Positions 6,570 through 50,330 are shown, numbered from the stretch's first letter. The stretch is DNA of 64,000 nt from Nitrosospira sp. (GCA_043721435.1 JAYSQR010000038.1:7629-71628), one strand, 5' to 3'. Translations and numbers: made by a program. Notes: generated from the sequence alone by a model not told the origin.

Positions 6570-6680
6570 CAAGTATTAAGGCCCCGCTTAGGGAGGGGAA
6601 GCGGGAGACAGTCAAACATCGTCTGTCAATAAGACGACAGAGTTATGGAACAAGTTCCCGGAATCTTAAATTTTTGTTAG

Positions 6681-7721
<1,041 letters not shown>

Positions 7722-19501: not shown

Positions 19502-20185
19502 GTGCATATACTCATAATCGAAGACGATCCCACGATCGCTACCAATCTCTACGATTTTCTGGAAGCCCGCGGACACTGTGTCGATGCGGCCGCTGACGGT
19601 ATCACCGGCCTGCATCTCGCGATCACACAGCACTTTGACGGTATTCTGCTTGATCTCGGTCTGCCGGGCATGGACGGCATCACATTGTGCCGCAAGCTAC
19701 GGCAGGAAGCGCATCTCGACACGCCGGTACTGATGTTGACCGCGCGCGACACGCTGGAGGACAAGCTGAAAGGTTTCGAACATGGGGCTGATGACTATCT
19801 GGTCAAACCGTTTGCATTAAGAGAAGTTGAAGCGCGTCTGGTTGCAATGCACAAACGCCATAGTGGCAAGGTCACCAGTCGCACATTGGAAACCGGCGAT
19901 CTGTCATTCGACCCCAAAACGATGTCGGTCAATTTCACCGGTGCAGGGGTCAAATTGCCGCCGAAATGCATTCGCCTGCTTGCACTCATGATGGGCGAGC
20001 CCGGCCGCGTATTCAGCCGGAAAGAACTCGAGTCGGGAGTGTGGGGGGATGCGCAGGGAACCAGCGATACCCTGCGCAGTCATATGCACGAACTGCGCCG
20101 CGCACTGATCCGGGTTGGCGGCTACGATCCGATCGAGACCGTCCACGGTCTCGGTTACCGCCTGATTACTCGTGCTCGAGCTTAA
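19502..20185 (+). CDS. OmpR-family response regulator
   Basis: Receiver domain (ILIIEDD...LLDLGLPGMDG...DDYLVKPF) plus a winged-helix C-terminus (VHGLGYRL). GTG start. Confidence 0.9.
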   Translation: MHILIIEDDPTIATNLYDFLEARGHCVDAAADGITGLHLAITQHFDGILLDLGLPGMDGITLCRKLRQEAHLDTPVLMLTARDTLEDKLKGFEHGADDYLVKPFALREVEARLVAMHKRHSGKVTSRTLETGDLSFDPKTMSVNFTGAGVKLPPKCIRLLALMMGEPGRVFSRKELESGVWGDAQGTSDTLRSHMHELRRALIRVGGYDPIETVHGLGYRLITRARA

Positions 20186-21561: not shown

Positions 21562-22515
21562 ATGCCAACCGTGCAACCAGTAGTACTGTTTTTCATCTTG
21601 GGCGTTTTGGCCGGGGTATTGAAATCCGACCTCAAGATTCCTGAGGCTTTATACAAAAGCATGAGTCTCTTCCTGTTGATCGCGATCGGTCTCAAGGGCG
21701 GGGTGTCGATGGCCAAGTACGAAATCATGGAGGTGCTGCCCATTGCCCTGTCCATGGTGGTGCTCGCGGCACTGGTTCCGCTGTGTGCCTACCCCATATT
21801 GAAGCATATAGGTAAATTCAACCAGGCTGACTCGGGAGCCATCGCCGCCCACTACGGTTCGGTGAGCGCGGTGACCTTCGCCGTGGGCCTTGCCTTCCTG
21901 GAAGGAATAGGGGAGACGTCCGAGGGTTACATGGTACTGATCATGGCGCTGATGGAGATACCGGCGCTGGTAACCGGCACGATCCTGGCGCGGCGCGGTG
22001 CCGGAGGCGAAACCGCGTGGGGCAAACTGATGCACGAGATCCTAACCGGCACCAGTATTTTCCTGATGGTGGGCGGGGTCATCATCGGTTACTACGCCGG
22101 CATGGTGAAATTAGTCTCGCCGCTGGACAAGATGTTCATGGACTTGTTCATGGGGGTGCTGGCTTTCTTCCTGCTGGAGATGGGCCTGTTGGCATCGGCG
22201 CGGCTGTCGGCAATTAAGAAAAAAGGGCCGTTCCTGCTTGTGTTCGGTATCGCATTCCCGTTAGTAGCCGGGGTGTTGGGCGCCTTCCTGGGCAGCGCAT
22301 TCGGCCTGTCGCTGGGCGGCACCACGATGCTCGCCGTACTGTACGCCAGTTGCTCCTACATCGCGGCTCCCGCAGCCATGCGCATTGCAGTGCCGGATGC
22401 GGATCCTGCGGTATCGATCGGCGCTTCGCTCGGGGTGACCTTCCCATTTAACATATTTATCGGCGTGCCGATTTACTATGAAATGGCGAAATTTTTCGTC
22501 GGCGCTCCAGCATAG
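21562..22515 (+). CDS. sbtA: SbtA-family (sodium-dependent bicarbonate transporter-like) permease, short form
   Basis: Blocks align by eye to Synechocystis SbtA. These are LKIPEALYKSMSLFLLIAIGLKGG, HYGSVSAVTFA, MEIPALVTG, and SLGGTTMLAVLYASCSYIAAPAAMRIAVPDADPAVSIGASLG. About 10 TM, with only a short central loop. Confidence 0.8.
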   Translation: MPTVQPVVLFFILGVLAGVLKSDLKIPEALYKSMSLFLLIAIGLKGGVSMAKYEIMEVLPIALSMVVLAALVPLCAYPILKHIGKFNQADSGAIAAHYGSVSAVTFAVGLAFLEGIGETSEGYMVLIMALMEIPALVTGTILARRGAGGETAWGKLMHEILTGTSIFLMVGGVIIGYYAGMVKLVSPLDKMFMDLFMGVLAFFLLEMGLLASARLSAIKKKGPFLLVFGIAFPLVAGVLGAFLGSAFGLSLGGTTMLAVLYASCSYIAAPAAMRIAVPDADPAVSIGASLGVTFPFNIFIGVPIYYEMAKFFVGAPA

Positions 22516-22564: not shown

Positions 22565-22882
22565 ATGAATAACTCGATAGCAATGAAACGATTCGAGATC
22601 GTTGTTGATGAAGAAAAACTCAACGAACTGATCACGTTGTTGGGGGAGGTTGGCGTGCGCGGCTACACCTTCATCAAGAACACGGGCGGCCTCGGTTCAC
22701 GCGGCGAACGGCGTCCCGATGGCCTCTTTTTACAGGAAGAAAATGCCATGGTGATTCTGGCTTGCCAAGAAGAGCAGGCGCAGAAGGTGATTGCGGCGCT
22801 ACGTCCCAAGCTGAAGGAATTCGGCGGCATGTGCCTGATTTCGGACTGTCTCTGGGTGGAAGGGCCGGCAGTCTCATATTGA
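22565..22882 (+). CDS. sbtB: SbtB-type PII-like signalling protein (copy 1)
   Basis: 105 aa. RFEIVVDEEKLNELITLLGEVGVRGYTFIKNTGGLGSRG matches the PII fold and T-loop start of SbtB (KLVIVTEK...GAKGYTVMNTGGKGSR). Lies directly downstream of the sbtA-like gene. Confidence 0.8.
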   Translation: MNNSIAMKRFEIVVDEEKLNELITLLGEVGVRGYTFIKNTGGLGSRGERRPDGLFLQEENAMVILACQEEQAQKVIAALRPKLKEFGGMCLISDCLWVEGPAVSY

Positions 22883-22941: not shown

Positions 22942-23026
22942 TACGTCACTTCACTAGGCTAAAAAAGTCCCAGCTATGACTGACTGGCTTCCCCTGATGC
23001 AACCTTCTCAATTCATTAAAACGGTG

Positions 23027-23061
23027 ACGGCTGCATGGTTGCAATGACCATGCAGCCGTTT
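23027..23061 (+). terminator. candidate intrinsic terminator of the sbtA-sbtB unit
   Basis: Perfect 13-bp stem ACGGCTGCATGGT / ACCATGCAGCCGT with a 7-nt loop, followed by TTTAA. The U-tract is short. Confidence 0.5.
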
Positions 23062-23371: not shown

Positions 23372-24844
23372 ATGGGGATACTCAGCTTATTGCTTTGGAC
23401 CCCAATTGTTGGCATTCTGGTTTTGTCTTTGACATCCGGTCAGGATGCCCGCTCGATTCGTTTCTTCGCCAACCTGTTTGCCACCCTCACATTTCTGCTT
23501 AGTTGCTGGCTAGTTATCATCTATGACCAGCAGGATAGTGCCATTCAGTTCGGTGAACAATTTACGCTTAACCCCAAATTGGGTAGTGCTTTCGCCCTGG
23601 GTGTTGATGGCCTGTCGATCCCCATGCTGGTATTGGCGACATTACTTACGTCCATTGCAATGCTTGCTTCTTTTACCATTTCTAACAGTATTAAAAGTTT
23701 TCATATTTGTATCCTGTTGCTGGAGTTTGGCATGTTGGGCGTGTTTCTGGCACAGGACTGGGCGCTGTTCTACATTTTCTGGGAACTGACTTTAATCCCG
23801 CTGTTCTTTCTGATCGACCGCTGGGGCGGTAAACGGCGGCACACGGCCAGTCTCAACTTCGTGCTGTACACGATGGGCGGTTCGATTTTCATGCTCATCA
23901 GTTTGCTCGCGATTGGTCACTACATGCCTGAACACGGCGGATCGTTGATGGCTTCGATGAGTCAGGCGGCGCAAAGCATGCCGCGGGATGAGCAAGTCTG
24001 GGTGCTGCTGGGGTTTTTGATCGGTTTCGGGGTCAAGATGCCGATTTTCCCGTTGCACGGCTGGCTGCCTTTGGCCCACGTTGAAGCACCCAGCCCGGTC
24101 AGTATCCTGCTGTCGGGCGTTTTGCTGAAAATGGGTTCTTATGGCCTGATACGAGCCGTGGTGATGCTGCCGGAGGCCGCACAAATATTGCAGCCATGGC
24201 TGGTTTTCCTGGCGTTATTCGGGATGATTTACGGTGGCTTGCTGGCCTGGCGGCAAAGCGATCTCAAAGCGATGGTGGCTTATTCTTCGGTCAGCCACAT
24301 GGGCATAGTCTTGCTGGGCATTGCCGCCTTGAATGAAACCGGGCTCACTGGCGCAGTCTTGCAGATGACCGCTCATGGATTGATTGCGGGCGCAATGTTC
24401 CTGCTGGTGGGACTGCTGTATGAGCGCACTCATACCCGCAACATTCAGGATTACAGCTCATTGGTCCAGGTGGTGCCGCGTTTTGCCTTGTTCATGACGT
24501 TGACCCTGTTTGCAGCGATGGGCTTGCCGGGTTCGGTGGGTTTCATTGCCGAATTGCATGCCGTTATCGGTGGCTATCAACAATGGGGCGGCTTGATGGT
24601 ATTTTTTAGTCTGAGCATCCTGATCGGTTCTGCCTACGCCATTCGCACCATCGGCCTATTGTTCACCGGTCCGGTAAAGCCGCAGATGCGAGAGATCGAA
24701 GACTTGCGTACCCCCGAGTTATTGGCAGCCGGTTTACTGGTTACGGGTATTGTGTTCTTCGGTCTGCTGCCGGCGCCGCTGATTGACTTGTCGTCAGCGA
24801 CCCTGGGCCACATGAGCAGCTTGATCAGTCAACGTATTCAATAG
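23372..24844 (+). CDS. NuoM/NdhD/MrpD-type antiporter-like subunit (copy 1)
   Basis: FYIFWELTLIPLFFLI (TM5 Glu motif) and GFGVKMPIFPLHGWLPLAHVEAPSP...LLKMGSYG (TM7/TM8 lysines). About 14 TM. SD AAGGCGGA upstream. Confidence 0.9.
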   Translation: MGILSLLLWTPIVGILVLSLTSGQDARSIRFFANLFATLTFLLSCWLVIIYDQQDSAIQFGEQFTLNPKLGSAFALGVDGLSIPMLVLATLLTSIAMLASFTISNSIKSFHICILLLEFGMLGVFLAQDWALFYIFWELTLIPLFFLIDRWGGKRRHTASLNFVLYTMGGSIFMLISLLAIGHYMPEHGGSLMASMSQAAQSMPRDEQVWVLLGFLIGFGVKMPIFPLHGWLPLAHVEAPSPVSILLSGVLLKMGSYGLIRAVVMLPEAAQILQPWLVFLALFGMIYGGLLAWRQSDLKAMVAYSSVSHMGIVLLGIAALNETGLTGAVLQMTAHGLIAGAMFLLVGLLYERTHTRNIQDYSSLVQVVPRFALFMTLTLFAAMGLPGSVGFIAELHAVIGGYQQWGGLMVFFSLSILIGSAYAIRTIGLLFTGPVKPQMREIEDLRTPELLAAGLLVTGIVFFGLLPAPLIDLSSATLGHMSSLISQRIQ

Positions 24845-24853
24845 GATATTGCC

Positions 24854-27800
24854 ATGCACGCAGCCCATGAATCCCTCGATAAACGTGAGCAGATCATCGC
24901 GTCACTGAATCATCTGGATCATGTCCTTCCTGGGCAAGGACCGATTCTTGATTTCGTCCACCACAATACTCTGCATGGTTACCAGCATCTGCCATTCGAG
25001 CAAGCACTGGCGGAATCCGAGGCGCTTACTGGTATTTGCGGCTATCTCCCTGAAGTACAAAACCGGGGATTTTATCAGCGCGGACGGATTAATGACCGGG
25101 ATCTGTTTGCGGCACTCGCACATAACCCGCAGTTGCAGGCTGAGCAAGTCGTCTGTGCAGCGGGCGATTTAACGATTACGCGCAAGGATATTTATCGCAT
25201 CGCCATGTTATTCGACTTGCAAGCCCTCACTGTCAGTCAGTTGAACTGGCAAATAGAAGAGTTGGATGCGCTGGGCACAGTGCAAGCCGATGTGCCTGAA
25301 CAAGTCCGCAGGCGGCTGCTGGAAAACAGCCCTGACCAGAGCAATGCCATCAGGCAGTTGTGGGAAAGTATCTCGGATAAGTTGGGGTTGGAACAGGTTG
25401 CTCTGCATCCGGAGAACATGCTGGATTTATCACTGGATCAGGCCGAAGACTGGCTGGAGAAAATTCACTCCAGTGATCCGGATAGCAGCAGTCTTACGCT
25501 GCATCAGCGCATGCGGCAACAAGCCGCCGCTTCACTGGATGAGTTGCTGGCCCAACTCGGCGACAGCATTACCCTGCGCGGTTTTATCCTGGCATTGAGC
25601 GGGATCGACATTCTCTACTCCGTTCGCCCGCAATTGATACGCATCTGTGCGTCTGCCCTGGACGAAGGCATGGCCGCCTGGCAACTGCCAGAACGCAACC
25701 AGTTGGGTCTTTACGCTGCTTGGCGGGCAACGGCGCAATATGACGCGAATCCGTTTTTGCATGACTTGCCAGATTGGCAGCGGATTGTGGCCGAATCACC
25801 TGAAAATGCGGTCGATGCCATTATCCAGCAACTGACCCAACTGGAGATGCCGCATGATAAATGGGAAGGATATCTGCAGCGACTGGCGCTTGAGTTGCCG
25901 GGTTGGTCTGGAATTATCAACTGGCGGCAACATCACCCGCAATACCATGCCGAGAACGATGCGGCGCCGAAACTAGCGGATTATCTGGCTATCCGGCTGA
26001 TTCTGGACAGACTCTGGCTTGATCAGGCTTGCCGTGAAACCTGGAAAATCGAAGCCAAACTGAGTTCGTTGCAATTCTATTTCAGTAAAAACCTGTCGGA
26101 ATTCATGGTACGCAGGAAACTGTATCAGGGCGGCCTGCCTGAGTATCTGACCCAGCCGGCTGAATCATTGATAAGCCGCGCCGGTTCTGAACGGTATAAA
26201 CAATCCGACTGGCAGCAGCTCGCCGATCTGGTCTGGACCTGGCAGTTCAGTCCGATGGCGGAAACCAACGCCGGAAGCTGCGGCTTTAATTGGGGCTGGC
26301 GTCTGTTCCGTTTATGCCAGCATCTGGGGCTCAACGCCGCATATGTTCAGCAACTGCAGCGAAAAGATTTGCAGCAGATGCTGGCGCTACTGGATGAATT
26401 TACCGCCACTGAGCGCAGCAAGGTCTGGCTTGATGCCTACGAGCATCATTACCGGGAAGATTTTTTTCAGGCATTGCGTGCCAATCGTAATCGCGGCCGC
26501 TGGGCCAGGCGCGATACTCGCCCGGATTCGCAACTCATATTCTGCATAGATGACCGTGAAGAAAGTATTCGTCGTCATCTGGAAGAATTCAATCCCGCCA
26601 TTGAAACATTGGGTGCTGCCGGTTTTTTTGGCGTACCCATGAACTATAAAGGGCTGGATGATAACAGGGTAACGCCGTTATGTCCGATCGTGGTGACCCC
26701 GGCGCATGAGGTTCGGGAAGTGCCACGGGCGGGCAGCGAACAGTCACTGCTCTCGCATAACAACGGCCGTAAGACGTTACAACGGGTTGCCAATCTGCTG
26801 CATCAGGGTTTGCGCCGCAATCTGCTGTTGTCGCAAGCGGTTATCGATGCGGTTGCACCGATTACTCTGGCTGGATTGCTGGCAAAGATACTGTTCCCCA
26901 AACCACAGCAACATCTGCTTGCCGACATAAAGAAGCTGGTCTCGCCTGAAGTTGCGACTCAACTGATGTTTACTTCAATGGATAATGAGACAGTTGCGTC
27001 GCCGGCAAAACCTAAACTGGGTTTCACCGATAATGAACAAGCCGACCGGGTAGCAGGCTTTTTGCGCAATAGCGGTTTGACTTACGGGTTTGCGGAACTG
27101 GTTATTCTGGTAGGGCATGGTTCCATCAGCCAGAATAATCCACATTTGGCTGCTTATGACTGTGGTGCCTGCAGTGGCCGGCATGGCGGACCGAATGCCA
27201 GATTGTTCGCAGCAATGGCCAATCGTCCGGAGATACGCAAGCTGGTGGCAGCGCGCGGCATCAATATTCCGTCTGATACCTGGTTCATCGGCACTGAGCA
27301 CAATACCTGCAATGAAGAATTCATTTGGTATGACCTTTGTGAGGTGCCTGCGGAACGACTACCCGCACTAAAGAAATTGCAACAGGAGATACAACACGGG
27401 CAGCACATGTCCGCACATGAGCGTTGCCGCAGACTGGCTTCCGCGCCGCGCAACCCGACGCCGGAGCAGGCACTGGCACATATAACAGAAAGAGCCACAG
27501 ATTTCTCCCAAGCCCGTCCCGAACTTGGTCATGCGACTAATGCTGCTGCAGTTGTTGGCCGCCGTTCAGTAACACAGGGCGCATTCTTTGATCGCCGTGC
27601 GTTCCTGATTTCTTATGATCCGACGCAAGATCCGGAGGGCAAGATACTGGAAGGAATTCTGCTGGCCGTTGGGCCGGTCGGGGCAGGTATCAATCTGGAA
27701 TATTATTTCTCCACCGTCAATAATGAACGCTTTGGATGCGGTACCAAGGTTCCGCATAACGTCACCGGTTTCTTCGCCGTAATGGAAGGCACCAGCAGTG

Positions 27801-28132
27801 ATTTGCGTACCGGCCTGCCCAGGCAGATGATCGAGATACACGAAGCGGTGCGCCTGCTGATCGTGGTCGAGGCGAAGACTTCAGTGCTCGGGGAAATCTA
27901 TGCGCGTCAAGCAAGTTTGCGCGAACTGATAGCTGGCGGCTGGGTGTTGTTGAGTGCAATAGATCCCGACAACGGTGAAATTTCCTTCTTCGAACGTGGC
28001 GTGGGTTTCGTCCCGTGGCAAGCTGAAGCAGTAGATTTGCCAGTTGTTGAAAAATCGCCGGATTGTTATCGGGATCAGACTCTCCCCGTTGCGCCGGTAT
28101 TGATTAAACAGCCCGAATTTTCGGGGGCCTAA
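24854..28132 (+). CDS. dabA: DUF2309/DabA-like protein (putative vectorial carbonic anhydrase subunit of a DAB-type inorganic-carbon pump)
   Basis: N-terminus LDHVLPGQGPILDFVHHNTLHGYQHLPFEQA is typical of PF10070. Zinc-site pattern FCIDDRE (C564, D566, R568; TGC at 26543) and GHGSISQNNPHLAAYDCGAC (H755 at 27116; C770). Followed after 4 nt by a NuoL-like gene. Confidence 0.85.
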   Translation: MHAAHESLDKREQIIASLNHLDHVLPGQGPILDFVHHNTLHGYQHLPFEQALAESEALTGICGYLPEVQNRGFYQRGRINDRDLFAALAHNPQLQAEQVVCAAGDLTITRKDIYRIAMLFDLQALTVSQLNWQIEELDALGTVQADVPEQVRRRLLENSPDQSNAIRQLWESISDKLGLEQVALHPENMLDLSLDQAEDWLEKIHSSDPDSSSLTLHQRMRQQAAASLDELLAQLGDSITLRGFILALSGIDILYSVRPQLIRICASALDEGMAAWQLPERNQLGLYAAWRATAQYDANPFLHDLPDWQRIVAESPENAVDAIIQQLTQLEMPHDKWEGYLQRLALELPGWSGIINWRQHHPQYHAENDAAPKLADYLAIRLILDRLWLDQACRETWKIEAKLSSLQFYFSKNLSEFMVRRKLYQGGLPEYLTQPAESLISRAGSERYKQSDWQQLADLVWTWQFSPMAETNAGSCGFNWGWRLFRLCQHLGLNAAYVQQLQRKDLQQMLALLDEFTATERSKVWLDAYEHHYREDFFQALRANRNRGRWARRDTRPDSQLIFCIDDREESIRRHLEEFNPAIETLGAAGFFGVPMNYKGLDDNRVTPLCPIVVTPAHEVREVPRAGSEQSLLSHNNGRKTLQRVANLLHQGLRRNLLLSQAVIDAVAPITLAGLLAKILFPKPQQHLLADIKKLVSPEVATQLMFTSMDNETVASPAKPKLGFTDNEQADRVAGFLRNSGLTYGFAELVILVGHGSISQNNPHLAAYDCGACSGRHGGPNARLFAAMANRPEIRKLVAARGINIPSDTWFIGTEHNTCNEEFIWYDLCEVPAERLPALKKLQQEIQHGQHMSAHERCRRLASAPRNPTPEQALAHITERATDFSQARPELGHATNAAAVVGRRSVTQGAFFDRRAFLISYDPTQDPEGKILEGILLAVGPVGAGINLEYYFSTVNNERFGCGTKVPHNVTGFFAVMEGTSSDLRTGLPRQMIEIHEAVRLLIVVEAKTSVLGEIYARQASLRELIAGGWVLLSAIDPDNGEISFFERGVGFVPWQAEAVDLPVVEKSPDCYRDQTLPVAPVLIKQPEFSGA

Positions 28133-28136
28133 GCGG

Positions 28137-29705
28137 ATGGATGCATTGGTCGCATTGATTCCATTGTTACCGCTGGTTGCTGCAGCTGTTATCGGTATAG
28201 GCCATTTGTTTGGCCAGATCAGCGGTGAAAGCGGTGAGCGCACGACAGCAAACATTGCTACCGGAGCTATTACTCTGTCCTGTGTGCTGGCGTTGACCCT
28301 GTTGGGCGCCGATCTGCTGGGTAAAAACACCGGCTCATTCAACGCGGGGCAGTGGCTGCGCAGTGGCACGCTGGGCATACAAGTAAGTTTTATCACCACT
28401 GGTTTCAGTATCATTCTGGCAGCGCTGTTTTCGATACTGCTGATTATTGTCACCCGTTTTTCAATCAACTACATGCACAGAGAAGCGGGATTTCACCGTT
28501 TCTTTTTCATTCTGAGCCTGTTTTCTTCGGCAATGCTGCTGCTGGTGCTGTCGGGTAATGCCATTGGCACTTTCATCGGCTGGGAAATTGCCGGGTTATG
28601 CTCCTACCTGTTGATATCCTATGCCTATGATCGCCCGGTTGCGGCCCTCAATGCAACCCGTGTATTCGTCACCAATCGCATCGGCGATGCCGGGTTCATT
28701 CTGGGAATAGGGGTCAGCTATCTCTATGCCAAGAGCATCGAATGGAGTAGTCTGAATGCGGTGGCAGAACAGTTGACCACCCCTACTGCCACTGTGATCG
28801 CGCTGTGTTTCGCCATAGCAGCTTTTGCAAAATCGGTACAATTACCATTCACCCCCTGGCTGGGACGGGCAATGGAAGGACCGACACCATCGAGTGCGGT
28901 GTTTTACGGCGCGGTCATGGTACATGCCGGGATCTATCTGGTAATTCTGCTGCAGCCCATCTTTGAACGCGCGCCATTTGTCATGGTTCTGCTGGCCGTG
29001 GTGGGACTAAGCACCGCCATCTATAGCTTTGTGGTCGGATTGACTCAAACCGATGTTAAAAGCTCGTTGTGTTTTGCTACATCCGGCCAACTGGGTTTGA
29101 TGTTTCTGGAATGCGGTCTGGGTTTGTGGCAACTGGCCAGCTGGCATCTTTGCGCTCATGCTATTGTTCGTGGCTATCAGGTATTAACCGCACCATCGCT
29201 GATGCACAATGTACTCGGCAATCCGATCAAACCGGTTAGTCGCGATATTGCCGGACTGCGCTGGCTATATACCGCATCGATACAGCGTTTCTGGCTGGAT
29301 CCGATTGCCGATCGGGCGTTAGTAAGACCGGTTCACGGACTCGGGCGCGATCTGGGCTATTTTGATGACCATATCGTCGATCGCATCATGGGTACACCTG
29401 CGCGCGCAGGCCGTGCCATATCGTCACTGGCGCAATTGGAAAAGAGAGTGCTGAGCGCCCAGTCGGAGCATGACCCCAATGAATTCAGTCGTAGCAGTGG
29501 TGTGGCCGGAAAACTGTTCCAATGGACAGCGGACATTTTCAACTGGTTTGAAGATCGCCTGGTATTGCGAGGCATAGGCATAGACGCGATCGACATGGGA
29601 CGCCAGCTCGGATATGCCGCCAATAAATTTGAGAAATTGATACTGAAGCCTCGCTACCTGGTGGTGTTTGTAGCCATAGTGTTACTGCTTGCAGCTGCAA
29701 TCTGA
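28137..29705 (+). CDS. dabB: NuoL/NdhF-type antiporter-like subunit (DabB-like), lacking the long lateral helix
   Basis: GWEIAGLCSYLLISYAYDRPVAALNATRVFVTNRIGDAGF and AKSVQLPFTPWLGRAMEGPTPSSAVFYGAVMVHAGIYL are NuoL signatures. At 522 aa it is shorter than respiratory NuoL. Confidence 0.88.
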   Translation: MDALVALIPLLPLVAAAVIGIGHLFGQISGESGERTTANIATGAITLSCVLALTLLGADLLGKNTGSFNAGQWLRSGTLGIQVSFITTGFSIILAALFSILLIIVTRFSINYMHREAGFHRFFFILSLFSSAMLLLVLSGNAIGTFIGWEIAGLCSYLLISYAYDRPVAALNATRVFVTNRIGDAGFILGIGVSYLYAKSIEWSSLNAVAEQLTTPTATVIALCFAIAAFAKSVQLPFTPWLGRAMEGPTPSSAVFYGAVMVHAGIYLVILLQPIFERAPFVMVLLAVVGLSTAIYSFVVGLTQTDVKSSLCFATSGQLGLMFLECGLGLWQLASWHLCAHAIVRGYQVLTAPSLMHNVLGNPIKPVSRDIAGLRWLYTASIQRFWLDPIADRALVRPVHGLGRDLGYFDDHIVDRIMGTPARAGRAISSLAQLEKRVLSAQSEHDPNEFSRSSGVAGKLFQWTADIFNWFEDRLVLRGIGIDAIDMGRQLGYAANKFEKLILKPRYLVVFVAIVLLLAAAI

Positions 29706-29712
29706 GGGACTG

Positions 29713-31302
29713 ATGGCAATTACTCCTGTTATCCCCTGGTCAGAATCAGCAGCGTTTCCGTTGCTGACTATGCTGACGCTTATCCCGTTGACGACGCTGG
29801 TCGCTGTTCTGTTGTCACGTTCATCGTCGGTGGCATTGCGTATCGGTTTTGCCGGAACACTTTCGACGCTATTGCTCAGCTTCTACCTGCTGAGCGTTTT
29901 CGATGCTGATCGTCCTGGTATTCAACTGGCCGAAGAGATGCACAATCTGGGTTTTACCTACAGCGTGGGTGTTGACGGTGCCAATATACTGTTTATTCCA
30001 CTGACGGCCATTTTTACACTGCTGGCCTTGATTTATACCTCAATCACCCGGCATGCCACTGATCGGGTATACATTGCCTGTTTGCTGGGTTATGAGGCTA
30101 TCCTGATTGGTGCGTTCTCGGCGATGAATCTGATGCAGTTCTGGCTATGGTGTGTGCTGGAACTGATCCCGGTGGTGCTGCTGACGATTCGTGCCGGCAC
30201 CGGGCAAAACCGGCGCTGGGTCGTCTCACTTTTGCTGCAGCACTGGCTGAGCGGATTGTTGATGACCCTGGCAGGTTTCATGTTGCTCGCCTTTGGCTTA
30301 ATGAATGTAGTACCTGACGCCGAACTGACTTTTGACTGGCTGAAATTGAAAGAAGTCAGTAATGCGCAGTTACAGTATGGGTCACTGATCTTCTTTCTCC
30401 TGTTTTTTGGTTTTGCCATCCGCATGCCGATATTCCCGTTTCACGGCTGGCTGCCGGTATTGGCGGAACAAGGCACCGTCGCGAGCGTGGCCATTTTCCT
30501 GGGGGGCCTGAAACTGGGGGTTTACGGAGCCATTCGTTTTATCCTGCCGCTGATTCCGGAGGCCGCCGAACAATGGTCCGGATTTGTGCTGACACTGGGT
30601 TTAATCAGTATCGTTTACGGCGCGTTGCTGGCGCTGATGCAAATCAATATTCGCCGTTTGCTGGCCTTTGCCGTAGTCAGCCATACAGGCATGCTGGTCA
30701 TCGGCATTTTTGATTTCAACAAATACGGCATGGAAGGCACTATCCTGTTATCCGTTGCTTATGGCCTTGCAACTGCGGGCATGTTTTTCAGTGTCGGTTT
30801 GATTTATGAGTGGACTCGTACTGCTATTATTCCGCGCCTGGGCGGGCTGTTTGATGCCAATATCACCATCGCATTCCTGTTCGTGATCTCTGCACTGACT
30901 ACCATGGTCATGCCCGGCACCCCAGGGTTTGACGGCGCGCATCTGCTGATCGAGGGTACTGCCTCAAGATACGGTTGGCTGGTCGTTACTGCGATATTGC
31001 TGGGCAACCTCCTGGCTGCCGGTCTGCTGCTGCGTGCTTTTCAGCAGATGTTTGTTGCCGCGCCGAAACGATTTCTGCAACCCCACAGCAGTGCTCATAA
31101 ACCCGCCAAGAAGGAACAGGTTATTGCAGTGGTAATTTGCTCATTATTGATCGGTACGGGTTTTTACACGACACCCTGGGTGCATGTGATAGACCAGAAC
31201 GTAGTGGCCTCCATGAACGAGCTGGAGGCCTCCCTGCATCATGGTACACAACAGTCTGGCACGGTGACTGTGCCTGTCGGGGTTAAAGGCGGGCATAAAT
31301 GA
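29713..31302 (+). CDS. divergent NuoM-type antiporter-like subunit (copy 2) with a hydrophilic C-terminal tail
   Basis: GFAIRMPIFPFHGWLPVLAEQGTVASVAIFLGGLKLGVYG aligns to the NuoM TM7/TM8 region. The TM5 motif is altered (QFWLWCVLELIP). I prefer the ATG at 29713, preceded by GAGGGA; the ORF-track start at 29689 overlaps dabB. Confidence 0.82.
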   Translation: MAITPVIPWSESAAFPLLTMLTLIPLTTLVAVLLSRSSSVALRIGFAGTLSTLLLSFYLLSVFDADRPGIQLAEEMHNLGFTYSVGVDGANILFIPLTAIFTLLALIYTSITRHATDRVYIACLLGYEAILIGAFSAMNLMQFWLWCVLELIPVVLLTIRAGTGQNRRWVVSLLLQHWLSGLLMTLAGFMLLAFGLMNVVPDAELTFDWLKLKEVSNAQLQYGSLIFFLLFFGFAIRMPIFPFHGWLPVLAEQGTVASVAIFLGGLKLGVYGAIRFILPLIPEAAEQWSGFVLTLGLISIVYGALLALMQINIRRLLAFAVVSHTGMLVIGIFDFNKYGMEGTILLSVAYGLATAGMFFSVGLIYEWTRTAIIPRLGGLFDANITIAFLFVISALTTMVMPGTPGFDGAHLLIEGTASRYGWLVVTAILLGNLLAAGLLLRAFQQMFVAAPKRFLQPHSSAHKPAKKEQVIAVVICSLLIGTGFYTTPWVHVIDQNVVASMNELEASLHHGTQQSGTVTVPVGVKGGHK

Positions 31303-32804
31303 GTGAAGCTGGTTTCCCGCTGCTGAGCCTAGCCATTCTGTTGCCGCTGCTCGGTGCTCTTGCAGTCGGGATCACCCGCGACATAAAGCTGGCCAAGGGG
31401 ATTGCGCTGGCAATCGCCGGTTGCGAACTGTTGCTGACGCTGCTGATAGTGCAGTCGTTCAACGCCGGTAGCGGCAGTTTCCAACTGGTCGAAAAGTATC
31501 CCTGGATACCGTTCCTGAATATCGATTATCTGGTCGGTGTTGATGGCATCTCAGTATTGTTCCTGCCAATGTCAGCGTTATTGACGCTGACAACGATCAT
31601 TGCTTCGTGGAATTCGATACAGCATAACCCCCGCTTTCATTTTGCGTTATTGCTGGCATTGGAAGGAATCACCATCGGGGTGTTTACTTCACTGGATACG
31701 GTGTTGTTCTTTTTGTTCTGGGAACTGACGCTGCCGCCATTCTTCTTTTTAATCGGTTTATGGGGCATCGGTTCGCAACGCCGTGGTGCGGCAATGAAAT
31801 ACACGCTGTTTATGTTGTTTGGCGGGGTGCCGCTATTGCTTGCTTTCATCATACTGGCGATTAATCATGCCACTGTGGCGGGTGGAGTCATTCCCCATGC
31901 GCTCTCCTTCAGTTTGCCGGTCCTGCTGGAAACGCCCTTGCCAGATAATTTACAGATACTGGTTTTCTTGTTGCTACTGCTTGGCTTCGGTGTCAAAGCA
32001 CCTCTGGTTCCCTTTCATACCTGGTTGCCGACTGCCGCAATGGAAGGTCCGGTACACGTAACGGCGATACTGACCGGTCTGAAGCTGGGCGCTTACGGTA
32101 TCTTGCGTTTTGCCATGCCATTAGCCCCTGCTGCGGCTGTCGAATACAGTTGGATACTGGGCATTCTGGGTACGGTTACGCTTATATATGGTGCGCTGAT
32201 TGCTTTGCAACAGACTAATCTGCGCCGTCTGCTGGCTTACGCCAGTATCAGCCACGTCGGTCTGGTCGTGGTTGGTATCGCGTCCTTGAATATACAGGGT
32301 CTGCAGGGTGCGGTTTTTCAATTGCTCAACTTCTCTTTGGTGGCCAGTTCACTGATACTGATTGTCGGCATGATTCAACACCGCCTGGGCAGTACCGAGA
32401 TTATCCATTTGGGTGGCTTGGCCAAAGTGATGCCACGGCTGACCTGTTTCTACTTCCTGTTTACCCTGGCGAGTATCGGGGTACCGGGAACCAACGGGTT
32501 TCCCGCTGAACTGATGTTGATTATCGGTGCATTGAAAGCCCACTCCAGTCTGGGAGTTGCCGCGCTGGTCGGCGCAGTCCTCGGTGCTGCATACATGCTG
32601 TCCTATATCCGCCGTGCCTTTTTTGGTCCGATCACGCAATCCGTTGTCAGTCAGGCGCAGGATTTATACCCGCGAGAACTGGCTCTGTTATGTGTTCCTG
32701 CCTTGCTGGTTCTGGTGTTTGGGTTTTTCCCGGACAGTGTGCTGCATATCAATCAAATGGCGTCGGAAGTATGGTTGTCGCGGATACTTAATCCAGCTCC
32801 TTAG
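31299..32804 (+). CDS. NuoM/NdhD-type antiporter-like subunit (copy 3)
   Basis: FFLFWELTLPPFFFLIGLWG and GFGVKAPLVPFHTWLPTAAMEGPVHVTAILTGLKLGAYG. ATGA overlap with the preceding gene. Confidence 0.9.
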   Translation: MSEAGFPLLSLAILLPLLGALAVGITRDIKLAKGIALAIAGCELLLTLLIVQSFNAGSGSFQLVEKYPWIPFLNIDYLVGVDGISVLFLPMSALLTLTTIIASWNSIQHNPRFHFALLLALEGITIGVFTSLDTVLFFLFWELTLPPFFFLIGLWGIGSQRRGAAMKYTLFMLFGGVPLLLAFIILAINHATVAGGVIPHALSFSLPVLLETPLPDNLQILVFLLLLLGFGVKAPLVPFHTWLPTAAMEGPVHVTAILTGLKLGAYGILRFAMPLAPAAAVEYSWILGILGTVTLIYGALIALQQTNLRRLLAYASISHVGLVVVGIASLNIQGLQGAVFQLLNFSLVASSLILIVGMIQHRLGSTEIIHLGGLAKVMPRLTCFYFLFTLASIGVPGTNGFPAELMLIIGALKAHSSLGVAALVGAVLGAAYMLSYIRRAFFGPITQSVVSQAQDLYPRELALLCVPALLVLVFGFFPDSVLHINQMASEVWLSRILNPAP

Positions 32805-32896: not shown

Positions 32897-33967
32897 ATGA
32901 ATACCGGAACTGATTACCTGCTTGATTTGAATGCACGCCACTCGCGGGCTTTTATTGATTTGGCCATGGAGCGCCGCAGATACCGGGGCGAACATCCCAC
33001 TGAAATAGCGGCGCTTAAATGCATGGATGGCAGGCTTAACCTGTCGGTCATGACACGAACCGCAGTCGGGATCATTCAACCTTTTCGCAATCTGGGTGGC
33101 AAGTTTGATCTGGGCTGGCCCTTCTTCCAGGCAACTCTGGATCAATGGGCGCAGTACTCCATCGGCCGCGGCAGGTGCTGCCTGATCTTTGTGACCTATC
33201 ATTTTGCGCGCGGGGATACTCATCGTGGTTGCAGGGGATTCAATTACGATACCAATGCTGCCAGAGACACGGCTATAAAACTCAAGAATCAGTTTGAGCG
33301 TATTTATGGCAAGGGTGCCGTGGTGCCCATTGTGTGCGGGATTGAGACTGACCTTGATGCCTTGATCCTGCACGGCGAAGATGGTCGTGTTGTTGATCTG
33401 GCCGAAGTAAAGGAAGACTTATCCGGACTCGAATTGGAAGGTTTGCTGCGTTCGCTGTACCCCTCAATGCCGGAACGGATTCTCAAGGATATGATCCCGC
33501 TGGTTGAAGGAAACATCAAACACTCCCGAAAGATCCGCGCTTCCAACAGGCCGATCGAGGATGCCGAACACAAGGAATGGGTCTTGGGAGTGGGGCGCGG
33601 CTTTGACTGGCTGCATGCCATCAATACGGCTTTCATCGTCGGGCCGTTCGATCCGAATCTTTCTGATGCGATTGGAACTGCGGCCACACTGCTGAAAGGC
33701 AATATTGACGACGGCCGGGTTAACCCAAGCGGTATTGTGCTCATGACTTCGGCTGCTTACAGAGAAATTGGCCCCGAACGTGAACTGGCTAAAGAGAAAG
33801 CAAGATTCCTGAGCAAATTTGCGCTCGATGTTATCAAGGCCAAGGTTCCGGATCTGGTGCCTCACCTGAACATACTCACTGGATTCACTGATTTAAACAC
33901 TAGAAAATTCGAAGTGCTGGAGCGTCTGGACAAGGTTTCCAACCCGGTGGCTTACAAAGTCGCTTAG
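32897..33967 (+). CDS. uncharacterised 356-aa protein with beta-carbonic-anhydrase-like motifs
   Basis: KCMDGRLN (C42-x-D44-x-R46; TGC at 33020), GIIQPFRNLGG (compare GxxFVxRNxxN of beta-CAs), and THRGCRG (H109-x-x-C112; CAT at 33221). About 150 aa of unrecognised C-terminal region. Own SD (GGAGA) and a TATAAT box in the 92-nt upstream spacer. Confidence 0.6.
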   Translation: MNTGTDYLLDLNARHSRAFIDLAMERRRYRGEHPTEIAALKCMDGRLNLSVMTRTAVGIIQPFRNLGGKFDLGWPFFQATLDQWAQYSIGRGRCCLIFVTYHFARGDTHRGCRGFNYDTNAARDTAIKLKNQFERIYGKGAVVPIVCGIETDLDALILHGEDGRVVDLAEVKEDLSGLELEGLLRSLYPSMPERILKDMIPLVEGNIKHSRKIRASNRPIEDAEHKEWVLGVGRGFDWLHAINTAFIVGPFDPNLSDAIGTAATLLKGNIDDGRVNPSGIVLMTSAAYREIGPERELAKEKARFLSKFALDVIKAKVPDLVPHLNILTGFTDLNTRKFEVLERLDKVSNPVAYKVA

Positions 33968-34159: not shown

Positions 34160-34477
34160 ATGAATAACTCAATACCAATGAAACGATTCGAGATTGTTGT
34201 TGATGAAGAAAGGCTCAACGAGTTGATCGCGTTGCTGGGATCAACCGGTGTGCGTGGCTACACTTTCATCAAGCATACGGGCGGCCTCGGCTCGCGCGGC
34301 GAACGGCGTCCAGATGGCCTCTTTTTACAGGAAGAAAATGCCATGGTGATTCTCGCCTGCCAGGAAGAGCAGGCGCAGAAAGTGGTCGCGGCGCTACGTC
34401 CCAAGTTGAAGGAATTCGGCGGCATGTGCCTGATTTCGGACTGCCTCTGGGTTCAAGGACCTGCAGTTTCATATTAA
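34160..34477 (+). CDS. sbtB: SbtB-type PII-like signalling protein (copy 2)
   Basis: 105 aa, 97/105 residues identical to the product of 22565-22882. Strong SD GGAGGA 6 nt upstream. Confidence 0.8.
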   Translation: MNNSIPMKRFEIVVDEERLNELIALLGSTGVRGYTFIKHTGGLGSRGERRPDGLFLQEENAMVILACQEEQAQKVVAALRPKLKEFGGMCLISDCLWVQGPAVSY

Positions 34478-34730: not shown

Positions 34731-37280
34731 GTGAATTTCACGAGATCAAAAGACTCGCCGTGGTGGGCGCGCAGTGTCGAAGAGACAGCCCAGGATATCG
34801 GCGCATCGATTAATGGCCTTAGCACGGCCGAGGCGACTGAGCGGCTTAAACATTTTGGTGCCAACGCACTCGAGGATAATGGTGCACCTAGCGTTGTTTC
34901 CTTACTGTTGCGACAGTTTGGCTCTCCCATTGTCCTGATCTTGATTGTCGCAGCGATTCTGTCGTTCGCGGTGCACGACCCGAGCGATGGGTTCATCATT
35001 CTCTTTATCGTTGCCGCCAGCGGTTTGCTGGGTTTCTGGCAGGAATTCCGTGCCGCGACGGTCGTCGCCAGCTTGCAGGAAATGGTCGAACTAAGTGCCA
35101 TGGTCATGCGCGATGGTGCGGCAACCAGCGTACCGCGGGATGAGGTGGTGCCAGGTGATGTTGTTCTCCTTTCCGCAGGTTCTGGCGTACCTGCAGATTG
35201 CCGCTTGTTGGAATTACGTGATCTGTTCGTCAACGAGGCGACCCTGACTGGAGAGACATTCCCGGTCGAGAAGATTGCGGCTGATTTGCCGGCAGACACG
35301 CCGCTGGCACACCGCACCAATGCGCTGTTCCAGGGCACCCATGTGGTCAGTGGGAATGGCCGGGCTCTGGTCATACGAACGGGCCGCAACACGGAGTTTG
35401 GTGCGATTGCACAGCAGTTACGGACTCGGCCGGAGGAATCTGATTTCGAGCGCGGAGTGCGTCAATTTGGCACACTGCTGATCCGGCTGACGTTGATCCT
35501 CGTGATCCTGATCTTTGCCTTCAACGTCCTGTTGCAGCGGCCGGTCCTCGATTCGTTCCTGTTCGCGCTGGCGCTCGCTGTCGGCCTGACCCCAGAATTG
35601 CTGCCGGCGATCATCAGCGTAAATCTGGCCAGTGGGGCTCGCCGGATGGCTGCCAAGAAAGTCATCGTTAAACGACTCGTTTCGATCGAGAACTTTGGCA
35701 GCATGGACGTGCTGTGCTCGGACAAGACGGGCACGCTTACAGAAGGCAAGGTCAGCCTGGAAGGCGCGCTGGATGCAGAAGGGAATCCAAGCGAGCGTAC
35801 GCTACGGCTGGCAGCAATCAATGCGGCATTCCAAACTGGATTTAACAACCCGATTGACGATGCCATCACGGTGGGGGCCGATCACGGGACTTTCGGCGCA
35901 GTGCGTCTTGACGAGATACCGTACGATTTCACACGCAAACGTCTGAGTGTGCTGGCGGCCATTGATGGACAAGCCGTACTCGTGACCAAGGGAGCGCTGT
36001 CACAGATGATCGATGCGTGTGTTACGGTGCAACTGGCCGACGGCCGAATTGTTCCCATTATGGGGCAGGAGCAGGCGATCCTTGAGCGCTATGCCGCGTT
36101 TAGTGCACGCGGGCTGCGCACGCTTGGAATTGCGGCAAAGTCATTGCCGGGGCGCTCCGCCGCCGGGCGAGAAGACGAGACAAATCTCACGTTTGTCGGC
36201 TTTTTGCTATTCGCGGATCCACCGAAAGCAGGGATTGCGGCAACGATCCTGGAGCTGCAAGGTCTTGGCATCGCGCTCAAGGTGATTACCGGGGACAATC
36301 AGTTGGTGGCGCGAGAAGTAGCCAGGCAGATCGGCCTGGTTGATGCGCGTATCGTGAGCGGGCAGGAACTGCGACAGGTAAGCGACGAGGCGCTGCCACA
36401 GTTGGCGCGGATGACAGACATTTTTGCCGAGGTTGAGCCGAACCAAAAAGAGCGCATCATCCGTGCACTCCGCAAGGCAGGCCACGTGGTTGGCTACCTG
36501 GGCGATGGCATCAACGATGCTCCAGCGCTGCACGCTGCGGACGTTGGCTTATCGGTTCAAGGCGCCGCAGATGTAGCGAAGGAAGCCGCCGACATCGTGT
36601 TGCTCGAGCCGGATCTCGCCGTGCTTGCTGCCGGTGTGCGTGCGGGCCGTGCAACCTTTGCGAATACCATGAAATACGTTTTCATGGCCACGAGCGCAAA
36701 CTTCGGCAACATGTTCAGCATGGCCGGCGCATCGCTTTTCCTGCCTTTTCTGCCGCTGCTGCCAAAGCAGATCCTGCTCACTAATTTGATGACTGACTTG
36801 CCGGAAATGGCCATCGCCACGGATCAGGTAGATACCGAATCGGTCGAGCAGCCCCAGCGCTGGGATATGGAATTCATCCGCGACTTCATGCTCAAGTTCG
36901 GGTTGCTCAGTTCTGTTTTCGACTTCCTCACATTTGGAGTGTTGTTCTTCATCCTGGAAGCCTCTCCCGAGCTATTTCGCAGCGGCTGGTTCGTCGAATC
37001 TGTCGTGTCGGCTGCGCTGGTTGTGCTCGTCATTCGAACTCGCGGGCCATTCTGGAGGAGCAGGCCGTCCACGGCACTGACGCTGGCGACGCTGACTGTA
37101 GCCGCTGCCGCAGTCGCGCTCCCGTATACGCCGCTTGGCAACCTGTTTGGCTTTGTGCCGCTTCCGCCCCTTTTTCTCGGACTCATGGGGCTGATTGTGC
37201 TGGGGTACATCGGCTCAGCCGAAATCCTGAAGCAAACGTTCTACCGGCAGTACGAAAAAGGGAGTCGGGCTGCGGCCTAG
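34731..37280 (+). CDS. mgtA: P-type ATPase, MgtA-like magnesium-translocating type
   Basis: TGE-type motif (ATLTGETFPVEK), phosphorylation site CSDKTGTLTEG, hinge GDGINDAPAL, and GWFVESVVS...LVIRT, which is typical of MgtA-type C-terminal TMs. GTG start with AGGTGAGGA upstream. Confidence 0.85.
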   Translation: MNFTRSKDSPWWARSVEETAQDIGASINGLSTAEATERLKHFGANALEDNGAPSVVSLLLRQFGSPIVLILIVAAILSFAVHDPSDGFIILFIVAASGLLGFWQEFRAATVVASLQEMVELSAMVMRDGAATSVPRDEVVPGDVVLLSAGSGVPADCRLLELRDLFVNEATLTGETFPVEKIAADLPADTPLAHRTNALFQGTHVVSGNGRALVIRTGRNTEFGAIAQQLRTRPEESDFERGVRQFGTLLIRLTLILVILIFAFNVLLQRPVLDSFLFALALAVGLTPELLPAIISVNLASGARRMAAKKVIVKRLVSIENFGSMDVLCSDKTGTLTEGKVSLEGALDAEGNPSERTLRLAAINAAFQTGFNNPIDDAITVGADHGTFGAVRLDEIPYDFTRKRLSVLAAIDGQAVLVTKGALSQMIDACVTVQLADGRIVPIMGQEQAILERYAAFSARGLRTLGIAAKSLPGRSAAGREDETNLTFVGFLLFADPPKAGIAATILELQGLGIALKVITGDNQLVAREVARQIGLVDARIVSGQELRQVSDEALPQLARMTDIFAEVEPNQKERIIRALRKAGHVVGYLGDGINDAPALHAADVGLSVQGAADVAKEAADIVLLEPDLAVLAAGVRAGRATFANTMKYVFMATSANFGNMFSMAGASLFLPFLPLLPKQILLTNLMTDLPEMAIATDQVDTESVEQPQRWDMEFIRDFMLKFGLLSSVFDFLTFGVLFFILEASPELFRSGWFVESVVSAALVVLVIRTRGPFWRSRPSTALTLATLTVAAAAVALPYTPLGNLFGFVPLPPLFLGLMGLIVLGYIGSAEILKQTFYRQYEKGSRAAA

Positions 37281-43183: not shown

Positions 43184-43229
43184 GGTGATGCTGGGGAGTA
43201 GTGAGTGGAAAGTAGGGAGTGGGGAGGCA

Positions 43230-44762: not shown

Positions 44763-44802
44763 GGAGTGAATTGGTATGTTTAGCTTATCTGTCGCTCTGT
44801 TG

Positions 44803-46437: not shown

Positions 46438-46473
46438 GTTGCTTTGTTCCTGATTGTGGAAAATTTTAGGGTT

Positions 46474-47897: not shown

Positions 47898-47965
47898 GAA
47901 GTTCTCTCTGGCCGTTCAAAAAATGCTGTTTTATCCGTGCGCATTCGTGGCCAGGTTTCCCCGGA

Positions 47966-50233: not shown

Positions 50234-50330
50234 GTGACCGTTGATTCAGAGCAAATTTCATTGTGGGAAAGTGCCATAATGTGAAAATATTATATGCTGA
50301 AGCGCGGTGCCATAATCAAGGGAGCAATAT

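Follow-up and report, generated by a model that had tools for sequence, protein, structure and literature searches.

A widespread five-gene, multi-antiporter variant of the DAB family in Nitrosospira sp. and its putative role in inorganic-carbon uptake

Among the CO2 pumps known from chemoautotrophs, the main ones are the DABs, a family of energy-coupled ("vectorial") carbonic anhydrases. Efforts are under way to engineer them into crops and industrial microbes; the coupling of ion flow to the carbonic anhydrase in them is still debated. DAB2 is a DabA-DabB heterodimer, in which a finger of DabA inserts beside transmembrane helices (TM) 12-13 of DabB and Glu444 replaces the K399/D400 pair of NuoL (PMC13144422). 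DAB1 is a DabA-DabB-DabC heterotrimer, in which DabC, half as large as NuoM, corresponds by alignment to the NuoM helices that lie beside NuoL, is hydrophobic at the proton-path positions and is essential (10.64898/2026.05.01.722082); DabC matches no Pfam family. DabA1 of Halothiobacillus neapolitanus, with 1046 amino acids (aa), is a long form (10.1101/476713). An earlier gene-neighbourhood study, COGNAT (Klimchuk et al. 2017), described "Clade C" operons of ybcC (COG3002), in which ybcC lies upstream of a nuoL homologue and the neighbourhood often includes COG1008 (NuoM) and COG0659 (SulP); its authors proposed a correspondence between membrane subunit number and the number of ions translocated, and regarded YbcC as a protein of unknown fold and possibly an exergonic catalyst (PMC5700660). 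Here we describe an operon from a 64,000-nucleotide stretch of Nitrosospira sp. DNA (GCA_043721435.1, JAYSQR010000038.1:7629-71628; hereafter the window, with positions counted from its first letter), in which dabA is accompanied by four genes for antiporter-like subunits. The arrangement is real and widespread and constitutes a multi-antiporter variant of the DAB family, for which a CO2-uptake activity is inferred.

Five plus-strand open reading frames (ORFs) follow each other in the order M1-DabA-L-M2-M3 between positions 23372 and 32804. M1 (23372..24844) encodes a NuoM-type antiporter-like subunit of 490 aa (PF00361, E 1e-67; TIGR01972, 479 bits), followed by dabA (24854..28132), which encodes a long-form DabA, the cytoplasmic β-carbonic-anhydrase-like subunit, of 1092 aa (PF10070, 837 bits). 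The third gene, L (28137..29705), encodes a 522-aa protein made up of a NuoL-type core, a tail and an anchor, with PF00662 and PF00361 matched on aa 73-358 only. M2 (29713..31302) encodes a divergent NuoM-like subunit of 529 aa from its ATG (PF00361, 128 bits; TIGR01972, 274 bits), or of 537 aa from an alternative TTG start at 29689, and M3 (31299..32804) a NuoM-type antiporter-like subunit of 501 aa (PF00361, E 2e-62; TIGR01972, 466 bits). The gaps from M1 to M2 are 9, 4 and 7 nt, and the start of M3 overlaps the stop of M2 by 4 nt (ATGA). The sequence-only reading of the window had given the same five co-directional genes, with these lengths, spacings and M-A-L-M-M types, and both the ORF list with its junction check and the Pfam and NCBIfam assignments agree with it. 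TIGR01972, the NuoM model, has a cut-off of 263.8 bits, which M2 barely exceeds, and the NuoM-model scores of M1 and M3 lie far above their MrpD-model scores. No genes for NuoH/A/J/K/N, a redox (Q/N) module, Mrp, CupA or carboxysomes were found in the operon or in the annotated flanks of the window; likewise, the five-gene operon encodes no MrpB-like extension and no MrpC/E/F/G, its gaps being too short for hidden small ORFs. Terminator-like hairpins within the operon were not in excess (21 found, compared to 14.9 ± 4.5 expected by chance).

The recurrence of this arrangement was investigated in a census of one genome per species, based on DabA alignment and two DabA peptide patterns, in which the best 80 of at least 594 matches (35-75% identity) were retained. 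The ORFs of each locus were classed against the window proteins and subsequently reclassed with coordinates based on high-scoring segment pairs (HSPs), resulting in 83 non-redundant loci. The exact M1-A-L-M2-M3 order was present with sequence to spare on both sides (context-complete) in 36 of these, in several phyla, which bears out the recurrence that the sequence-only reading had put forward for checking; the remaining loci were mostly cuts of the same pattern by contig ends, or variants. The same order was seen at the loci of three DabA homologues that were looked up, from Methylobacter, Nitrosovibrio tenuis and a Nitrosomonas contig. Related loci were found in Nitrosomonadaceae, many Methylococcales, Thiothrix, Cocleimonas, Chromatiaceae, Thiodiazotropha, Competibacter, Thiobacillus, Sulfurimicrobium, Accumulibacter, Dechloromonas, Magnetococcales, Actinomycetota and Myxococcota, in metagenome-assembled genomes (MAGs) of Nitrospirota and Acidobacteria, and also in the orders Thiotrichales and Rhodocyclales. 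The five-gene arrangement thus occurs far beyond chance and in several phyla.

DabA holds the motif FCIDDRE (C564, D566, R568) and, within a 20-residue motif, H755 and C770 in His-x14-Cys spacing. The protein matches the solved DabA2 (9rd0_A) with an E-value of 1e-72, and both motifs align to C351/D353/R355 and the H524/C539 region of that structure, in line with the zinc-site pattern that had been read from the sequence. C564, D566, R568, H755, C770 and C773 are invariant in 72/72 DabA relatives. By this alignment the zinc site of DabA is assigned to C564/H755/C770 and the catalytic dyad to D566/R568; with two Cys, one His and an Asp-Arg dyad, the protein belongs among the PF10070 proteins of the DAB zinc-site type. 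Its sole hydrophobic stretch, as judged by hydropathy, is a membrane hairpin at about residues 657-681, bearing K678. Long-form DabAs have K or R at this position in 65/72 cases, and two 870-aa DabAs (loci L013 and L080) have Glu. The hairpin region did not align to the solved DabA2, so Glu444 could not be placed directly, and the possible equivalence of K678 with Glu444, drawn via the two 870-aa DabAs from other loci, is only a lead.

Alignment of the related loci revealed that the length of DabA rises with the number of antiporter genes: 870 aa with one antiporter gene (the two-gene DABs in L013 and L080), 1019-1061 aa with two (Myxococcota), about 1045-1125 aa with four (the proteobacterial five-gene form) and 1296-1343 aa with five (Actinomycetota, Polyangium). 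Four segments of the window DabA (99-148, 176-250, 401-463 and 484-516) are missing from the 870-aa two-gene DabAs, and the Myxococcota DabA is devoid of segments 176-219 and 411-463.

The L subunit consists, according to hydropathy, of a core with TM1-11 (aa 1-350), a hydrophilic tail of ~145 aa and a single C-terminal TM (aa ~501-519). Since no hydrophobic segment is present from aa ~350 to ~500, the TM12-15 of DabB are absent, whereas the canonical DabB of L013 and L080 retains TM12 onwards and has no long tail. The Pfam and NCBIfam match to NuoL is confined to residues 1-360. The best solved relatives of L are NdhF1 (6hum_F, 199 bits) and NuoL (153-174 bits), compared to 123 bits for DabB2 (9rd0_B). 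Of the earlier label "NuoL-like/DabB", the first half therefore stands, while L is not a typical DabB, because it scores closer to NdhF1 and NuoL than to DabB2 and lacks TM12-15.

Ion-path residues were placed by alignment to E. coli NuoL, NuoM and NuoN and then checked across orthologues. In L, residues E150, R181, D184, K232, H263, H337, H341 and R345 were kept in 55-57 of 57 orthologues; this NuoL-like PF00361 subunit, encoded 4 nt after dabA, thus has the proton-path residues of the subunit that adjoins dabA in DABs. The AlphaFold2 (AF2) model of L has a confident core, for which Foldseek returned NuoL/ND5/NdhF folds across about 350 residues, and a tail with predicted local distance difference test (pLDDT) scores below 50, in which helices are predicted at 375-418, 456-477 and 483-502. 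The tail is conserved in the 57 orthologues and is amphipathic (z = 3.2 compared to shuffles). In E. coli NuoL about 70 residues separate TM15 and TM16. The L proteins of Actinomycetota and Polyangium (about 720-750 aa) keep TM12-15 and have a hydrophilic tail, about 170-210 aa long, in front of the terminal TM, and the L-type tail is longer in loci with more M genes. Tail and anchor of L would thus have the layout of the NuoL lateral helix HL plus TM16, a likeness that is architectural only, with low model confidence in the tail and no significant likeness in sequence.

Among the three M subunits, the ion-path residues divide M1 and M3 from M2. M1 residues E138, K222, K253, E394, H309 and H335 are invariant in 58/58 orthologues. 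M3 presents the set E142, K233, K262, E404 and H319, of which the first four are kept in 48-51 of 52 sequences, the exceptions being L-adjacent (M2-position) genes of other phyla and the last, N-like gene of an actinomycetotal locus (L066). Both subunits therefore hold the TM5 Glu, TM7 Lys, TM8 Lys and TM12 Glu of complex I M-type subunits, while the corresponding set in the window M2 is degenerate (V148, R237, K267, A409). All 46 M2 orthologues have a hydrophobic residue at the position of the TM5 Glu, Arg at that of the TM7 Lys, and a retained TM8 Lys; the TM12 Glu is A or V in 42/46 and another small or hydrophobic residue in the others. The TM5 Glu is likewise missing from the gene right after L in the loci examined from Actinomycetota (L066, L079) and Myxococcota (L073, L083). 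Given this systematic degeneracy, only three of the four modules (M1, M3 and L) look like working channels. The four antiporter modules of the sequence-only reading are consequently confirmed as four subunit genes, although a full pathway is present only in M1, M3 and L, the TM5 and TM12 glutamates of M2 being lost, and its TM7 Lys exchanged for Arg, in 46/46 orthologues. M2 is probably a structural or connecting module beside L and, by analogy, resembles a DabC of full length: it is degenerate, its gene comes right after that of L, and the two can be fused.

In-frame fusions of L and M2 were found in a Competibacter-related clade, at L052 (13378-16515, 1045 aa) and L081 (11137-14247, 1036 aa), and a third locus (L061, 6958-9780) has a 940-aa L-M2 ORF of which the M2 part is interrupted. 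A linker of no more than about 10-15 aa joins the final TM of L to TM1 of M2. Such a fusion is topologically sensible, since by NuoL/NuoM topology a core of 11 TMs plus one additional TM would put the C-terminus of L on the side of the M-subunit N-terminus. The three fusion genomes are 65-75% identical to one another, and the fusion is one ancient event that has been retained. At L081 a 4.2-kb insert is located between dabA and the fused L-M2 gene. Apparent "M2-M3 fusions" of 903-942 aa in Rhodocyclaceae were rejected as artefacts that arose in GC-rich DNA when ORFs were extended to the most distant start codon: their N-terminal parts were Arg/Ala/Pro-rich nonsense, and HSP coordinates gave normal M2 genes.

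The variants found around the five-gene form differ in the number of heads and of membrane subunits. Two Thiothrix loci (L029, L060) have the order M1-A-L-A'-L'-M2-M3, in which A' is only about 40% identical to the window DabA; these doubled DabA-L pairs suggest either a complex with two carbonic-anhydrase heads or alternative heads. In Methylomicrobium lacus (L013) and Methyloglobulus morosus (L080), a two-gene DAB (DabA 870 aa, DabB 624-676 aa) adjoins the five-gene operon, and as both forms coexist there they are presumably not redundant. Actinomycetota (L066, L069, L079) have M1-A-L followed by three M/N-like genes, the last being the most NuoN/L-like, Polyangium (L078) has M1-A-L followed by two, and Sorangium-type loci comprise A-L-M only. 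M1 sits immediately 5' of dabA in nearly all related loci, and the loci with M1-DabA only (L025, L039, L048 and L071), in which unrelated genes follow, hint at a direct contact between the two proteins. One lone DabA (L054) is followed by three small co-directional ORFs of 203, 344 and 321 aa. Two loci with proteobacterial-type operons (48-60% identity to the window DabA) carry the MAG labels Bathyarchaeota (L028) and Synechococcaceae (L061), which are probably due to binning contamination and do not represent the true hosts.

Taken together, the best explanation is that the operon encodes a redox-independent DAB family member with five subunits, and we put the probability that the five products form one complex acting in energised inorganic-carbon uptake at roughly 60%. 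A single complex is favoured by the L-M2 fusion, the relation between DabA length and antiporter gene number, the tail and anchor of L and the conserved proton paths of M1 and M3, as well as by the conservation of the five genes as a unit across phyla, their tight junctions and the precedent of DabC in DAB1. In the arrangement that we propose, DabA would sit on the cytoplasmic face of L, with its hairpin (residues ~657-681, with K678) filling the place of the missing TM12-15, and M2 would pack against L at the NuoM position, where the small, non-conducting DabC sits in the cryo-electron microscopy structure of DAB1. M3 and M1 would add two complete ion channels. The spatial order may follow that of the genes (M1, DabA hairpin and L, M2, M3), which could bring M3 E404 opposite M2 R237, and the TM5/TM7 pair of M1 opposite the hairpin Lys, while the ~145-aa amphipathic tail of L and its TM anchor would strap the array in the manner of helix HL of NuoL in complex I. 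H+ (or Na+) would enter down its gradient through as many as three channels, and this flow would act on the DabA active site by way of a central axis of charged residues, making CO2 hydration effectively one-way, so that HCO3- would accumulate in the cytoplasm. Spending several ions per CO2 would provide a larger driving force than in two-subunit DABs, and would thereby raise the affinity, steepen the gradient or allow the system to function when the membrane potential is low.

The genes around the operon suggest that the locus is an inorganic-carbon island, as SbtA/PII, a two-component system, the DAB-type operon and a CsoSCA-like carbonic anhydrase are found together. On the upstream side, hemE precedes an OmpR-type response regulator (19502-20185, plus strand; Response_reg and Trans_reg_C) and a sensor histidine kinase (20172-21440, plus strand; HisKA and HATPase_c), which by neighbourhood are candidate regulators of the operon; the same set adjoins the operon in Nitrosovibrio tenuis and in a Nitrosomonas contig. 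These are followed by an SbtA-like bicarbonate transporter (21562-22515, plus strand; PF05982, E 9e-111) and a PII-like, SbtB-type protein (22565-22882, plus strand; PF00543, E 2.5e-13), which by family assignment are a second inorganic-carbon uptake unit in the island. In other genomes either SbtA and PII or SulP and Usp genes are present upstream of the five-gene operon. A strong hairpin after the PII-like gene (23021..23060, plus strand; 15-bp stem, -29.5 kcal/mol according to RNAfold) is probably a terminator separating the sbtA-PII unit from the operon. The 489-nt spacer upstream of M1 revealed no conserved small ORF, RNA element or promoter in the related loci, and neither an Rfam match nor a convincing sigma-70 site.

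Downstream, 92 nt after M3, a CsoSCA-like β-carbonic anhydrase of 356 aa is encoded (32897..33967, plus strand; PF20686 at the cut-off). Its residues C42/D44/R46/H102/C112 are invariant, its AF2 model has a pLDDT of 89.8, and the best Foldseek matches are the carboxysomal CsoSCA structures 8thm, 9g4t and 2fgy (E about 1e-17, TM-score 0.73). The model comprises the catalytic and pseudo-catalytic fold of CsoSCA, the N-terminal domain being absent, and according to it the protein is a stand-alone CsoSCA-type β-carbonic anhydrase. Its close homologues (55-60% identity) show an odd distribution over Patescibacteria (candidate phyla radiation, CPR), Nitrosomonas and Nitrosospira. The gene adjoins the operon in seven loci (L002, L004, L007, L009, L011, L046 and L050) and is absent in Methylococcales; it is part of the island in Nitrosomonadaceae, outside the conserved five-gene core. 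Its adjacency to dabA is notable because CsoSCA has been reported as the closest structural relative of DabA (10.64898/2026.05.01.722082).

A second PII-like (SbtB-type) gene (34160-34477, plus strand, 105 aa) is identical to the first at 97/105 aa and 280/318 nt. The two bracket the DAB operon, the first following the SbtA-like gene and the second preceding a P-type cation ATPase (34731-37280); their near-identity suggests that a duplication or gene conversion took place recently, and may also reflect a shared regulation of different transporters. Elsewhere in the window, a match to the anti-hemB small RNA RF02837 (Burkholderia RNA 7; 6519-6608, minus strand; 73.6 bits compared to a gathering score of 49.5 bits) lies just upstream of, and antisense to, the hemB/ALAD gene (6711-7721), and a glycogen/α-glucan cluster (40628-55446), comprising glucan phosphorylase, starch synthase-type GlgA, PGI, GlgB, GlgC and two GH57 proteins, is unrelated to the operon.

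Several points weigh against a single five-subunit uptake complex. Its assembly, subunit order, ion species and stoichiometry are all deduced from sequence, and spending three or more ions per CO2 seems energetically lavish and costly for energy-limited nitrifiers. Many hosts are methanotrophs or heterotroph-like organisms without Rubisco dependence, and any bicarbonate pump would be short-circuited by the adjoining CsoSCA-like carbonic anhydrase of the cytoplasm if this enzyme were neither regulated nor compartmentalised. Context-complete partial loci exist, with M1-DabA only (the four loci mentioned above), DabA alone (L053, L054, L075) or A-L (L045), indicating that the five genes are not obligatorily together, or that the partners are encoded elsewhere. 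Being a single event, the L-M2 fusion counts once. The census, taking the best matches to two patterns, is biased to this DabA clade and does not represent the whole PF10070 family. The equation of K678 with Glu444 leans on the two 870-aa DabAs and not on DabA2 itself, and for the tail of L, in addition to the AF2 confidence below 50, comparison with helix HL of NuoL gave 0.1-0.6 bits in HMMER and nothing significant in BLAST.

The main rival explanation divides the operon into two machines: DabA and L alone would form the CO2-hydrating pump, and M1, M2 and M3 a separate, uncoupled cation/proton transporter, co-expressed to handle the proton from CO2 hydration or to balance pH or Na+. DAB2 does function with two subunits (10.1101/476713; PMC13144422), and some related loci hold DabA-L without M genes, or M1-DabA without the rest. 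The gene layout is difficult to reconcile with such a division, since dabA-L is flanked by M1 on one side and by M2-M3 on the other, with translational coupling throughout, and L is fused to M2 in one clade. According to the Mrp and complex I literature, antiporter-like subunits may conduct ions alone. M2 is without the charges of a working channel, and the operon encodes none of the small subunits (MrpB/C/E/F/G) required for Mrp function. In addition, L has lost TM12-15 and gained a long anchored tail without an obvious role in a two-subunit pump, and DabA gains segments along with the added M genes. We therefore regard two independent machines as unlikely.

Two other possibilities concern the direction and the ion rather than the composition. 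The same five-subunit complex could work with Na+, or with mixed Na+/H+ antiport as in Mrp, and a different ion path would then account for the degeneracy of M2 and for the Arg/Lys substitutions. This variant of the proposed complex is in agreement with the presence of the Na+/H+ antiporter subunits MrpA and MrpD in PF00361, with the membership of the island's SbtA-type transporter in PF05982, which Pfam names Na+-dependent bicarbonate transporters, and with the P-type cation ATPase just downstream. It is nevertheless improbable, given the NuoM-type E/K/K/E set of M1 and M3 and their far better scores with NuoM than with MrpD models; no sequence feature was found that separates Na+ from H+. 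Alternatively, the system might run in reverse, the exergonic hydration of metabolic CO2, followed by bicarbonate export via the neighbouring SbtA or SulP, serving to expel H+ or Na+. The COGNAT authors proposed such an exergonic YbcC reaction driving ion export, with more ions for more membrane subunits (PMC5700660), and the operon is common in methanotrophs, which make much internal CO2 and do not depend on Rubisco, with the anion transporters SbtA and SulP regularly adjoining it. Yet the operon is equally common in the obligate autotrophs Nitrosospira, Nitrosomonas, Thiobacillus and Thiothrix, and characterised DABs import inorganic carbon, driven by membrane potential or a cation gradient. 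As the cytoplasmic CO2/HCO3- disequilibrium would, by our reasoning, offer little free energy, and the island of the window is otherwise uptake-like, a reverse mode appears very improbable.

For the preferred reading, one complex in energised uptake, the presence of three extra complex-I-type modules would mean that the DAB family is not confined to two or three subunits. The operon would represent a natural experiment for ion-to-CO2 stoichiometry and affinity, a structural bridge among the DABs, the CupA-bearing NDH-1MS and the membrane arm of complex I and Mrp, and a redox-free model for long-range coupling between antiporter-like subunits. Its hosts comprise ammonia oxidisers, methanotrophs, sulfur oxidisers and polyphosphate accumulators, which are the agents of wastewater treatment and of the nitrogen, methane and sulfur cycles, and the operon may shape their carbon acquisition. 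More tentatively, the five-subunit form could be the full-size relative, and possibly the ancestor, of all DABs: a free-standing, redox-independent complex-I-type arm (L and three M subunits with a lateral-helix strap) whose sole head is a carbonic anhydrase. On that view, DabC of DAB1 would represent a reduced M2, DAB2 would mark the final stage in a series of subunit losses, several ions would be spent per CO2 for affinities or gradients beyond those of two-subunit DABs, and the complex would constitute a minimal natural system for long-range coupling of antiporter modules without electron transfer.

In comparison with DAB2 of H. neapolitanus and the staphylococcal MpsAB, the window operon shares the PF10070 DabA with its Cys-x-Asp-x-Arg...His-x14-Cys site and the adjoining PF00361 NuoL-like gene, and all of them are presumably driven by ion gradients and not by redox reactions. 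The hairpin of the window DabA may correspond in position to the membrane-inserting finger described for DabA2 (PMC13144422). The operon differs in having five genes and not two, with dabA preceding the L gene, and so has neither the two-subunit composition of DAB2 and MpsAB nor the three-subunit composition of DAB1. Its DabA is about 220 aa longer through the four insertions, and the hairpin of the window type carries a conserved Lys/Arg, whereas the 870-aa DabAs of two-gene DABs carry Glu. While DabB2 uses TM12-15 to hold the finger, DabB proteins having 12-15 TM helices altogether, the window L lacks these helices and presents instead a tail of ~145 aa with an anchor.

DAB1 (Thermocrinis albus, H. 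neapolitanus) likewise shares several features with the window operon. Both DabAs are long forms with an equal His-to-Cys spacing in the zinc site (H694/C709 in T. albus, H755/C770 in the window), and the degenerate M2 right after L parallels DabC at the NuoM position, a likeness drawn from the published description of DabC. M2 is, on the other hand, a full-length PF00361 protein with the central TM8 Lys, and the window operon adds two fully equipped NuoM-type subunits, M1 and M3. With the arm of complex I and NDH-1 the operon has in common one L-type and several M-type subunits with TM5 Glu, TM7 Lys, TM8 Lys/His and TM12 Glu/Lys; as in NuoL, L ends in a long amphipathic segment and a terminal TM, a resemblance in architecture only. 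It is without NuoH/A/J/K/N and a redox module, its L has no TM12-15, and one of its M subunits is degenerate. Mrp, too, is a redox-independent assembly of L-type (MrpA) and M-type (MrpD) antiporter-like subunits, but the window operon encodes a soluble carbonic-anhydrase-like subunit and has no MrpB-like extension and no MrpC/E/F/G. The cyanobacterial NDH-1MS (NdhF3-NdhD3-CupA) likewise attaches a CO2-hydrating protein to L/M-type subunits; in the window the carbonic anhydrase is DabA and not CupA. The intermediate position between DAB and NDH-1MS that the sequence-only reading had suggested is therefore sustained as an architectural analogy, while nothing ties the operon to a redox module.

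That reading had also known of no description of such a system, which has to be corrected: the ybcC clade with extra NuoM genes noted by COGNAT in 2017 (PMC5700660), with ybcC before a nuoL homologue and NuoM and SulP as neighbours, fits the window operon. No later description of multi-antiporter DABs was found in the full-text literature searched, and the DAB literature treats DABs as two- or three-subunit systems; the architecture has thus been noted before, but not characterised. The COGNAT paper is a neighbourhood note predating the function of DabA, and does not contain the fixed M1-A-L-M2-M3 order, the degenerate M2, the truncated and tailed L, the fusions or the size co-variation between DabA and the membrane subunits, which within the literature searched appear to be new observations.

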